Shown here: positions 16,273 to 19,747 of the stretch, piece after piece
Position numbering within the stretch: position 1 is the stretch's first letter
Layout: each line of letters opens with the position of its first letter
DNA from: Candidatus Bathyarchaeum sp.
GTDB taxonomy: Archaea > Thermoproteota > Bathyarchaeia > Bathyarchaeales > Bathyarchaeaceae
Direction of reading: 5' to 3'
Assembly: GCA_026014495.1 (NCBI GenBank)
Contig: JAOZIF010000184.1
Location: 1 to 28,340, forward strand
Length of the DNA: 28,340 nucleotides
Position numbers and translations under genes: made by a program
The notes under the pieces: model-generated
What the model saw: the letters and a program-made list of their open reading frames with translations, nothing else
What the model was told of the DNA's origin: nothing
The model's database searches: none

Positions 16273-17772
16273 TTGAATATTCATGGCACACTAAAAATTA
16301 GTTACCTACATCTCATTTATGTCCTCAATATCGCGGCGGGATTCATTTTCTTTTATGTCGACCAATACATTCACACACATGTTGCAAGTAGCTACTCTTA
16401 CACAAGACCATATTTCAGAGCCTTTTACTTTTTTGACACATGGTCCTACGCCATTCTTTTTTCCTTATCTTTACTAATTCTCGCCTTTTTGCAAAAAGAC
16501 AGGATACGCGCCCTCTTTGTTGCCCCCATGCTACTAGTTACGGCAGTCTTTAATGTCCTGTTCATAGGAGTCAACAACGGCTACTATTTTCCTTGGAACC
16601 TAATAACAACTGAACCAAACCATTGGCTAATGCAGTGGGGATTCAACATTATCGTGAGCATTCAGTGGACGCTACTGCTTATCGGAATAGTGAAAAACCG
16701 ACGCTTCACTTCGTTCCTAGTTCCCGTGAATGCTGTTTTGATAGTTGTGACTTCTCTGTTCCGCAACAACCTCAATCATTTACTCGACTTTGGAGCTACT
16801 CCAATCGAACTAGCCTACGCCATGGTAATCTTATTTTCTTTGGTGTTTACTTTGGCATATTTGATTTACCAAAAAAAGAAGCAGATTATTCCATCTGTTG
16901 CAGAAGCTGCGATTGTATCTGTTGTTTTATTTGTTGTTGGACTTGTTTCATGGAATGCACCACGCATCCATAACCTCATTCCTTTCTTTATTTTTGAGCG
17001 CGACATGGCTTTAGGTTCAATCCTGATCGGAATACTTGCCGCTGTAATTTCTTCCAAAGTGATGAAAAGAGAATCGATTACACTACATAAGAAGCATGTT
17101 TTGACTCTAGTTGTGGTGTTTGTTTTAGTGACTCCAGTTTTGGGTGCTATTCAGTATCAAGGAAGGGATAGTGTAGTTGCTGAGAGGCTAGGCGGAAAAT
17201 ATGATGCACAAATACGTGTGACACATTTCCCTGATACGGAAGAGTTTTGGTACACAAAAGATGGTAAAGAATGGTCAGGATACTTTGACTCAAATTATGT
17301 TGCTTGTCTAGATTGGATAAGAAGTAACGTTGCTCAAAATTCTGTTTTCTTGAACTGGTGGGACTACGGACACATGATAAGAGGAATCGCCGAACAAGAA
17401 GTAATCATCTTTAGTCCATCCGAGGAAATACTTTGGACAATACAGGACCCAAGCCAAATTAGTGAATACTCAAACCATCAAAATGTTGTGGCCGTAGCCC
17501 AAGCCTTAACCGCCACTGACATAAACGAAACAATAGCAATAATGCAAAACTATAACACTGCCTACATTTTCGTTTCCCAAGACGATGCCGCTATAGCAGG
17601 TGTCTTCTTTGAAGTTGCTGGAAAGGATTCGTCAACATATCTTACTTCGGAAGGGTTTACTGACCAAGGAAAAGAGACAACGCTATACAAGATTCTGCAG
17701 ATGACAAACCTAGAAAATTTTGACATTGTTTACAGCGACACGCAAGTAGTAATCTACAAACTAACTGTATGA
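16273..17772 (+). CDS. Multi-pass membrane protein with AglB/STT3-type C-terminal domain
   Basis: About 9 hydrophobic segments followed by LDWIRSN..NSVFLNWWDYGHMI (WWDYG motif) and MQNYNTAYIFV. Confidence 0.8.
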   Translation: MNIHGTLKISYLHLIYVLNIAAGFIFFYVDQYIHTHVASSYSYTRPYFRAFYFFDTWSYAILFSLSLLILAFLQKDRIRALFVAPMLLVTAVFNVLFIGVNNGYYFPWNLITTEPNHWLMQWGFNIIVSIQWTLLLIGIVKNRRFTSFLVPVNAVLIVVTSLFRNNLNHLLDFGATPIELAYAMVILFSLVFTLAYLIYQKKKQIIPSVAEAAIVSVVLFVVGLVSWNAPRIHNLIPFFIFERDMALGSILIGILAAVISSKVMKRESITLHKKHVLTLVVVFVLVTPVLGAIQYQGRDSVVAERLGGKYDAQIRVTHFPDTEEFWYTKDGKEWSGYFDSNYVACLDWIRSNVAQNSVFLNWWDYGHMIRGIAEQEVIIFSPSEEILWTIQDPSQISEYSNHQNVVAVAQALTATDINETIAIMQNYNTAYIFVSQDDAAIAGVFFEVAGKDSSTYLTSEGFTDQGKETTLYKILQMTNLENFDIVYSDTQVVIYKLTV

Positions 17773-17798
17773 CTAAAGGGCCTGTTCAAAGCTAAACG

Positions 17799-17897
17799 TT
17801 TTTAAGAGATTCATGCAATCTGTTCGGTTTGCGGGTAGGTGGAGCCTCCCACCCGTTCCGCATTAAAAATCCCGGAGTGGGGAGGTAAAAATATACA
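17799..17897 (+). promoter_or_regulatory. queT promoter (TTTTTAAG) and structured GC-rich 5' leader with anti-SD; candidate riboswitch
   Basis: TATA-like box 17799-17806; hairpins GCGG/CCGC and GGTGG/CCACC; CCTCCC (17845-50) complementary to GGGAGG SD (17880-85). Confidence 0.5.
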
Positions 17898-18425
17898 ATG
17901 AAAACAAGTGAAATAAGTTTAACAATACTACTTACAAGCCTGTACGCAGTTCTTGTAATTGTTTTAGCTCCAATATCTTATGGTCCAATTCAGTTGCGTG
18001 TTGCTGATTGCCTGATTCCCTTAGCAGCTTTGTTTGGTTGGCCAGCAATTGCTGGAGTAACTCTTGGCTGCTTCTTGGGCAACGCATACTGTTGGCTGGG
18101 TCCACAGGACGTAATCTTGGGACCAATAGCTAACCTTGTCGGAGCATACATCATCTTTAGGCTTAGAAAACGACCATTCACGGCATCTGTTGCAGGTTCT
18201 TTGCCTATCGGAATCATTGTAGGCGGCTACCTTTGGCTGTTCTTTGGATTCGAAGCAGACATGCTTGGATTGCAGCTTCCAGTATGGGGCACAATGATTG
18301 TAAGCATCACAATTAGCACTTTAATTGCAGTTGCAGGAATCGGTTATGGCCTACTCAGAACACTAAGCAGCTCTAGTATTGTTAACGCACTAAAGTCGCG
18401 TGGACTGAAAATATACCAAGATTGA
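17898..18425 (+). CDS. queT: QueT family ECF-type S component (7-deazaguanine precursor transporter family)
   Basis: LYAVLVIVLAPISYGPIQLRVADCL...GVTLGCFLGN...DVILGPIANLVGA family signature. Confidence 0.9.
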   Translation: MKTSEISLTILLTSLYAVLVIVLAPISYGPIQLRVADCLIPLAALFGWPAIAGVTLGCFLGNAYCWLGPQDVILGPIANLVGAYIIFRLRKRPFTASVAGSLPIGIIVGGYLWLFFGFEADMLGLQLPVWGTMIVSITISTLIAVAGIGYGLLRTLSSSSIVNALKSRGLKIYQD

Positions 18426-18640
18426 AACTGCACAGATACCTGTGTGCGCCTCAAAGAAACCATATGAACCTTTGAGGTTCCCCCGTTTCAACATGTAACT
18501 AGACTATAATCCGTTAATATTAACCAATGAATTAGCAAACGAACTACAAACTAGTTTGATTGTAGAGACTTTTATTAAGCAACAACCGCCAAAGTTTATG
18601 TGTGTAGCCGTTTGCGCTTTGGTGTGAGGCTGCTTTTATC

Positions 18641-19747
18641 TTGCAAGCCAGAATTGTGATGCTAGTTGATTTGGACTATTTCTTTGCACAATGTGAGGAG
18701 CTCCGAAAACCCTCCATAAAGGGCAAACCAGTGGTTGTTTGTGTTTATTCTGGGCGCACAAAAGACAGCGGAGCCGTAAGCACAGCAAACTATGTTGCCA
18801 GAAAATATGGCGTAACATCTGGGATTCCAATATCTTTAGCAAAAAAGAAGCTCCAAGATGTAGACGCGATTTTTTTGCCCGTTGATAAGGAGTTCTACAA
18901 GGAAATTTCGGGCAACATAATGGAGATTCTTAGAGGATATGCAGACCATTTTGAGCAAGTTAGCGTAGATGAAGCATACCTTGACGTGACGCACAGAACA
19001 AAAGCAAACTATCAGCGTGCAAAACAGTTGGCAGAGACAATAAAAGACGACATTTTGACCCAGCAGCAACTCACCTGCTCAATTGGTGTTGGACCTAACA
19101 AGCTCATTGCCAAGATAGCAGCAGACATCCAAAAACCTGACGGCTTGACGTTGGTTAAGCCCGAGCAAGTTAAACGGTTCTTGGCGCCTTTGCCTGTACG
19201 CCGTTTAGTGGGTGTAGGAAAAAAGACTGAAAAGAGGCTGGAAACTCTAGGCGTCAGAACTGTTAGCCAGCTAGCTAGCTTTGATGTGCAGCGGCTAATC
19301 GATGTTTTTGGAAGAAAACTGGGAACATACTTTCATAACGCGTCTTTGGGGTTTGATGATGACCCTGTTCAGGAAAAAGGCGAACCAGAATCAGTGAGCC
19401 GAATCTCTACGCTCAAAGAGGACACAACAAATTTGGGGGTTATACTTGATAAGGCTTACAGGTTATGCGATGATGTTCACTCTAAGTTGCTGAGTCTGGA
19501 GCTAATGTACAGGTCAGTTAGTGTGTATGTTGTTGGTAGTGACCTTAGTACGCACAGCAGGTCAAAGACTTTCGAGAATCCAACAAGCAGCCTAGAATCA
19601 TTCAAAACAGCTGTGAAAGAGCTTTTTGAAAAATTCTTAGCCGAATCTGATGTGGAGGCAAGAAGGGTAGGAGTCAAGCTTTCAAGTTTAACTAAAAAAG
19701 AGGCTAAACAAAAACAGTTAACAAGCTTTTTTGGCGGCTCCAGCTAA
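18641..19747 (+). CDS. dinB: Y-family DNA polymerase IV (DinB/Dpo4)
   Basis: VDLDYFFAQCEE, TANYVARKYGVTSG, QVSVDEAYLD, IGVGPNKLIAKIAAD, RRVGVKLS. Confidence 0.97.
   Translation: MQARIVMLVDLDYFFAQCEELRKPSIKGKPVVVCVYSGRTKDSGAVSTANYVARKYGVTSGIPISLAKKKLQDVDAIFLPVDKEFYKEISGNIMEILRGYADHFEQVSVDEAYLDVTHRTKANYQRAKQLAETIKDDILTQQQLTCSIGVGPNKLIAKIAADIQKPDGLTLVKPEQVKRFLAPLPVRRLVGVGKKTEKRLETLGVRTVSQLASFDVQRLIDVFGRKLGTYFHNASLGFDDDPVQEKGEPESVSRISTLKEDTTNLGVILDKAYRLCDDVHSKLLSLELMYRSVSVYVVGSDLSTHSRSKTFENPTSSLESFKTAVKELFEKFLAESDVEARRVGVKLSSLTKKEAKQKQLTSFFGGSS

Follow-up and report, generated by a model that had tools for sequence, protein, structure and literature searches.

A conserved pseudoknot-forming leader of archaeal queT genes, probably a 7-deazaguanine riboswitch of an undescribed class

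Introduction

Riboswitches of the preQ1-I class (RF00522) precede queT or que genes, act by a translational OFF logic and fold into an H-type pseudoknot in which a short G-C-rich stem, P1, is followed by an A-rich linker and a second helix forms between bases of the P1 loop and a 3' strand carrying the Shine-Dalgarno sequence (SD). Their minimal aptamer measures about 34 nt: a single 5-bp stem leads into an A-rich tail, the end of which takes part in a P2 of 2-4 bp. The preQ1-II class (RF01054, the COG4708/queT motif of Lactobacillales) also lies before queT and sequesters the SD in a pseudoknot. The preQ1-III class (RF02680) is a pseudoknotted aptamer sensing a 7-deazaguanine; it is larger, and its SD-sequestering helix lies outside the aptamer. 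In SAM-II and other H-type pseudoknot riboswitches, a classic pseudoknot holds the ribosome-binding site, and the ligand presumably occupies the helical junction. Known archaeal riboswitch classes are very few, chiefly those for TPP and fluoride, both common to bacteria (PMC5473149). ArcTGT is described as using preQ0 (PMC11298593).

Here, we describe a leader of about 60 nt (a motif of about 59 nt) before the queT gene of a Candidatus Bathyarchaeum sp. (assembly GCA_026014495.1). The window, that is, the whole stretch of DNA analysed, comprises positions 1 to 28,340 of the forward strand of contig JAOZIF010000184.1 (28,340 nucleotides). The gene context and pseudoknot architecture given above for preQ1-I recur in the leader, its OFF logic as a presumption. 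The leader differs from that class in its length (about 59 against about 34 nt), in its second helix (P3), which has about 10 bp and two bulges and competes with an internal hairpin (P2), in its invariant letters (GU, GUU and AAA-N-CCC-GG) and in being archaeal, with preQ0 rather than preQ1 as the expected ligand. It has the stem and A-rich linker of the minimal preQ1-I aptamer, but its length, its 10-bp P3 and the competing P2 set it apart. Its position before queT, its SD-sequestering pseudoknot and its similar length recall preQ1-II; in contrast to that class, no hairpin is inserted between linker and SD strand, and conserved sequence and taxa differ. With preQ1-III the leader shares a pseudoknotted architecture and, presumably, a 7-deazaguanine ligand, whereas sequence and gene context are unrelated to those of SAM-II and the other H-type pseudoknot riboswitches.

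A sequence-only reading of this stretch, made before our analysis, had recognised in the leader no match to preQ1 classes I-III and had called for an Infernal search of Rfam. That search (cmscan) bore this out: no family matched the motif at E<=10, either in window 17600-18100 or in 20 diverse copies, and the covariance models of preQ1-I (RF00522), preQ1-II (RF01054) and preQ1-III (RF02680) gave no match. Likewise, we found no description of such a motif in Rfam 15 or in the literature searched on queT, preQ1/preQ0 and archaeal riboswitches.

Results and discussion

The leader and its gene in the window

The open reading frame 3' of the leader (175 aa, start codon ATG at 17898) encodes QueT, as the sequence-only reading had proposed (Pfam PF06177, E 8.5e-26). 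The elements of the locus are given below; in motif numbering, position N corresponds to window position 17827+N.

17794-17806, + strand: BRE/TATA-like promoter box AAACG TTTTTAAG, with a predicted start near 17826-17830
17828-17890, + strand: whole leader motif, match of covariance model R1 (89.2 bits, E 6e-25)
17830-17835, + strand: P1 5' strand U GCGGG, pairs with 17857-17862 (positions 3-8 / 30-35)
17838-17842, + strand: P2 5' strand GGUGG, the anti-anti-SD segment, pairs with CCACC 17849-53
17845-17854, + strand: P3 5' strand CCUCCCACCC, the anti-SD segment, pairs with 17874-17885; CCACC within it doubles as the P2 3' strand
17855-17856, + strand: junction G28 U29 (alignments A2 and A3)
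17857-17862, + strand: P1 3' strand UCCGC A, pairs with 17830-17835
17863-17873, + strand: L3 linker UUAAAAAUCCC, with conserved AAA 17867-69 and CCC 17871-73
17874-17885, + strand: P3 3' strand GG(A)GU(G)GGGAGG, contains the SD (17880-17886)
17898-18425, + strand: queT coding sequence, the putative regulated gene (Pfam PF06177)

The match to R1 is the sole copy in the source genome. Direct inspection recovered the elements that had been read from the letters alone: the TTTTTAAG box at 17799-17806, a stem of GCGG 17831-34 with CCGC 17858-61, the A-rich linker ATTAAAAAT at 17862-70, the SD GGAGGT, located at 17881-86, and a hairpin of GGTGG 17838-42 with CCACC 17849-53 around the loop AGCCTC 17843-48, which RNAfold also reproduced. 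The outer stem extends further than had been noticed, by U17830-A17862 and G17835-U17857. Two segments are complementary to the SD region, namely CCTC 17845-48 to GAGG 17882-85, and the longer CCTCCCAC 17845-52 to GT(G)GGGAGG 17877-85. Folded as a lone sequence, the leader reached -23.3 kcal/mol, which is no better than its shuffles (z -1.1); the lone-sequence signal is therefore within chance, and it is the comparative signal that exceeds it. A mini-hairpin of CCC 17871-73 with GGG 17880-82, part of the minimum-energy fold, was discarded, since the CCC is conserved even where the SD strand has no GGG.

Across 206 distinct copies, the region before GCGGG shows an A/T-rich box that is most pronounced at -35 to -27, with an A-rich stretch 5' of the box. 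A TATA-like box at a fixed distance suggests that the motif begins the mRNA, and the usual archaeal TATA-to-start spacing would place the transcript start a few bases 5' of P1, in line with the sequence-only reading.

Conservation and distribution of the motif

QueT orthologues occur in 50 of 61 related genomes, and the proteins are 52-80% identical. The sequence-only reading had named the leaders of such orthologues as the place to look for conservation and covariation, and both were found: the same leader of about 60 nt, near-invariant, stands at all 30 queT loci fetched from related genomes (consensus GCGGGU..GUGG..CCUCCCAYCCGUUCCGC..AAAYCCCGG.GU.GGGAGG), and P1, P2 and P3 covary among the copies aligned. 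Identity to the window copy had a median of 89% among 27 relatives' copies, versus 32% for the anchored upstream 57 nt.

A covariance model, R1, was built from 28 copies. Its matches cover 105 of the 151 genomes, and 59 of the 79 genera, of class Bathyarchaeia; it also matched in four further families of the phylum (151-genome sample) and in 10 genomes out of 151 from an Asgard phylum, the one holding a Hodarchaeota MAG. Furthermore, scanning about 186,000 species genomes for the pattern gave at least 120 matching stretches. Among the matches listed, about 110 are real copies, which come from Bathyarchaeia (including Ca. Bathyarchaeum tardum, of the window's genus), Methanomethylicota, Hodarchaeota, Promethearchaeota and MAGs labelled Nitrososphaerota. 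About ten bacterial matches, again among those listed, were dismissed as chance, the remainder of the motif and QueT being missing from them.

Covariation of P1 and of two competing helices

The five core pairs of P1 are standard in all 90 sequences of alignment A3. Within this stem, G7:C31 is replaced by C:G in 9 of 90 sequences of A3 and 16 of 100 of A2 and is never unpaired, the closing pair varies (GC 56, AU 22, GU 5, UA 2, unpaired 5; A3, n=90) and the wobble G8-U30 is kept in 90 of 90 (A3). A mutual-information scan blind to structure had G7:C31 and the P1 closing pair as its top two, and its best-ranked pairs were exactly those of P1, P2 and P3, all three of which lie above shuffle and slide controls. 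Nine pairs of P1 and P3 changed on both sides, a number equalled in none of 500 shuffles, although such counts overstate independent events because most of the aligned sequences come from one class. Neither the invariant G-U wobble nor the U-G cases would be meaningful outside RNA. Pairing of GCGGG with the CCCG at 17852-55 or at 17871-74 was rejected, as G7 covaries with C31 and those CCCG segments do not change. The leader thus has the first trait looked for in a riboswitch of any kind, a conserved 5'-leader RNA with helices supported by covariation.

P2 (positions 12-15 / 22-25) is 93.6% paired in an alignment that was itself fitted to P2, and its pair U13:A24 occurs as UA 61, GC 8 and CG 2. 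In other clades its register shifts, yet part of the anti-SD is always covered. P3 (positions 18-27 / 47-58), a helix of about 10 bp with two single-base bulges, covaries though it is absent from the model. In A2, C23:G53 is CG in 77 sequences and UA in 9, C25:G50 is CG 64, UA 5, AU 3 and UG 3, and C21:G55 is CG 73, UG 16 and UA 5; A24:U51 is weak, with 21-27 sequences unpaired (27 in A2). By eye, compensatory variants of P3 include CCUCCU/AGGAGG, CCUUCC/GGAAGG and CACCUCC/GGAGGUG, and in a divergent subfamily the loop and SD-strand pairs covary as CUCCC/GGGAG, CCCUCC/GGAGGG, UCCCCC/GGGGGA and GCCCCC/GGGGGC. Copies without an SD keep P3 in other letters (UCCGAC/GUCGGA, ACAUCUC/GAGAUGU and GUCUC/GAGAC); P3 is therefore no by-product of any SD matching any CCUCC.

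P2 and P3 are mutually exclusive, CCCAC being common to both. As duplexes they amount to -9.3 kcal/mol for P2 and -18.7 kcal/mol for P3, figures that leave the loop cost of the pseudoknot out of account. Two ways of masking the SD had been proposed from the letters alone. The longer helix CCTCCC(AC)/GT(G)GGGAGG, said to exclude the hairpin, is backed by covariation and extends by CC 17853-54 / GG 17874-75, whereas the 4-bp pairing of loop CCTC with GAGG of the SD, said to coexist with the hairpin, is complementary but gains no support from covariation. The general claim that the leader can sequester the SD accordingly holds by way of P3, which covaries and contains it. With P2 and P3 both covarying, the leader also offers the alternative structures by which a riboswitch couples to its expression platform.

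Invariant unpaired bases at the P1/P3 junction

The linker AAA and CCC are invariant in alignment A1 and near-invariant in A2 and A3; specifically, in A3 C44-46, U9 and G28 are invariant, A40-42 are invariant save in one copy and U29 is kept in 87 of 90, with an extra base at this point in three further copies. Alignments A1-A3 show no pairing partner for the linker AAA and CCC, and the conservation of U9, G28, U29, A40-42 and C44-46, all sited at the P1/P3 junction, is unexplained by pairing. In one clade the mutual-information scan gave a weak signal between the G-run of L1 and the linker CCC (G15:Y43 as GC, GU and 3 UA); this pairing was set aside because, by our own estimate of helix geometry, it cannot coexist with full P3. 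We presume that G28 and U29 form part of a ligand pocket at the junction, and by analogy with H-type pseudoknot riboswitches the linker may dock in the minor groove of P1 or at that pocket.

Gene context and 7-deazaguanine metabolism

A QueT-like ORF directly follows the motif in 105 of 115 distinct copies, and most of the other 10 copies precede QueT with an odd start codon or QueT-like paralogues. In two lineages queC belongs to motif-led operons, which are of two types. The association with queT and queC ties the motif to one metabolic pathway, a further trait of riboswitches in general. At 2 of the 30 relatives' loci the motif is placed 1.2 kb upstream, as the head of an operon that comprises a queT paralogue, queC and queT. 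This arrangement was read at L007:281-2031, on the chromosome of Ca. Bathyarchaeum tardum (CP122380), a congener of the source organism, and at L010; the paralogue is a 160-aa protein. Both genomes have QueC and lack QueD, which hints at salvage of 7-carboxy-7-deazaguanine besides preQ0.

ArcTGT was present in each of five genomes checked (90-97% complete), while QueD and QueF were found in 0 of these five; true QueC occurred in just two of them, those that carry it in a motif-led operon. With ArcTGT present and QueD and QueF not found, these genomes appear to depend on 7-deazaguanine salvage, and preQ1 is unlikely to be made because QueF was not found. Overall, the sequence comparisons support the view that queT mRNA begins with a conserved, structured RNA element whose association is almost exclusively with queT and queC.

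In four copies the gene after the motif encodes a 230-aa membrane protein, and a 66-aa zinc-ribbon protein (CxxC...CxxC) comes next. The membrane protein matched no Pfam or NCBIfam family, and its match to the QueT profile is weak (34% probability). A P1 variant, GCGCG...GUUGCGC, often stands 5' of this conserved membrane protein (L042, L078, L088, L090, L158 and L201), and the conserved zinc-ribbon protein also occurs at L044 and L081.

Proposed mechanism and alternative explanations

We regard the leader (17828-17890) as probably an archaeal translational OFF riboswitch of an undescribed class, responding to a 7-deazaguanine, most likely preQ0. P1 (17830-35 / 17857-62) would always be formed, and CCUCCCACCC would choose between two partners. 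Paired with GGUGG (17838-42) it would make P2, leaving the SD free and translation on; paired with GG.GU.GGGAGG (17874-85) it would make P3, which together with P1 gives an H-type pseudoknot that buries the SD and turns translation off. U9, G28, the near-invariant U29 and the AAA and CCC of the linker would form a pocket for the 7-deazaguanine, most likely preQ0, which ArcTGT incorporates into the tRNA of archaea. On binding, the ligand would stabilise the pseudoknot and so shut off the salvage transporter QueT, plus queC where it shares the operon. The pseudoknot is assigned to the ligand-bound state because the pseudoknot form alone gives a reason for the AAA and CCC of the linker to be conserved. 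We infer the identity of the ligand, the OFF direction and ligand binding at the P1/P3 junction from these comparisons. With so short an RNA and only a few candidate ligands, all known compounds, the riboswitch claim is directly testable.

A protein-binding translational operator, at which a trans-acting RNA-binding protein, for example one of 7-deazaguanine metabolism, recognises the core and selects P2 or P3, would be expected to show this conservation and these alternative helices too; the small number of riboswitch classes known in archaea (PMC5473149) fits such a reading as well. We consider it unlikely, however, as the loci read show no candidate regulator gene accompanying the motif, queT or queC is the sole constant neighbour of the motif throughout the two phyla that keep it, and invariant junction bases in a compact pseudoknot would be typical of small-molecule pockets. 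A riboswitch might instead sense a purine-like cargo of these QueT-family proteins other than preQ0 or preQ1; 7-carboxy-7-deazaguanine, queuine and guanine are examples. The assignment of a substrate to archaeal QueT is putative, two QueT paralogues can share one operon, and QueC without QueD in some genomes hints at salvage of the QueC substrate. Nevertheless, this reading, too, seems unlikely to us: ArcTGT uses preQ0 (PMC11298593), preQ1 is hardly to be expected where QueF is not found, and feedback by preQ0 as end product would suit control of both queT and queC.

Readings in which no ligand takes part fare worse. P2 and P3, whose energies are of similar order, could by themselves switch with temperature or with the ribosome, and the leader might then determine the basal level of translation or how stable the mRNA is, or serve as a thermometer; this is improbable, because AAA, CCC, U9, G28 and nearly U29 are kept across phyla of very different habitats, which a simple occlusion hairpin cannot explain, and because the motif is tied almost exclusively to one pathway. 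The hairpin arms also constitute an inverted repeat just 3' of the TATA box, as expected of an operator at which a transcription factor binds the DNA across the transcript start. That idea is barely tenable, given compensatory changes that preserve RNA pairing and not DNA sequence, G-U wobbles that are invariant or frequent, a P3 that links segments 20-40 nt apart and a motif that is asymmetric.

Should the preferred reading, a preQ0-responsive OFF riboswitch, be true, a widespread archaea-only class would mean that archaea evolved metabolite-sensing RNAs of their own, would add an independent fold for the recognition of 7-deazaguanines and would provide a genomic marker by which preQ0 salvage could be recognised in Bathyarchaeia and Asgard archaea that are uncultured. 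The wider proposition, that this is the first riboswitch class native and confined to Archaea and a fourth independent solution to 7-deazaguanine sensing, tuned to preQ0 and governing the sole supply of the precursor of archaeosine in those Bathyarchaeia, Asgard and related lineages that depend on salvage, is one that we judge to be evenly balanced.

Divergent copies and flanking sequence

At four loci (L209, L218, L118 and L119) the 3' strand of P3 is not SD-like (GAGAUGU, GAGAC and GUCGGA), which suggests that the switch may be able to act on SD-less initiation regions. In a variant at L027:1340-1500, the linker CCCC is separated from the usual GGAGUAGGGAGG strand before queT by about 100 nt that contain a 33-codon ORF, and the motif looks split or rearranged.

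In the window, the leader is preceded by a gene for a 499-aa multi-pass membrane protein (16273-17772) that had no Pfam match at E<=0.01; the sequence-only reading called it AglB-like. Directly 3' of the queT stop lie two inverted repeats that could form hairpins (span 18430-18477), GCACA 18430-34 / TGTGC 18443-47 and CCTCAAAG 18449-56 / CTTTGAGG 18470-77, followed by a gene for a Y-family DNA polymerase at 18641-19747 (IMS, IMS_C and HhH domains; E 6e-45). Finally, the third copy of the motif in genome G170 (L123:150-250), before a QueT-like ORF, has a mutated P1 (GUGCA...GUUGAGC) and CCU in place of CCC, and this degenerate copy may be a decaying duplicate.
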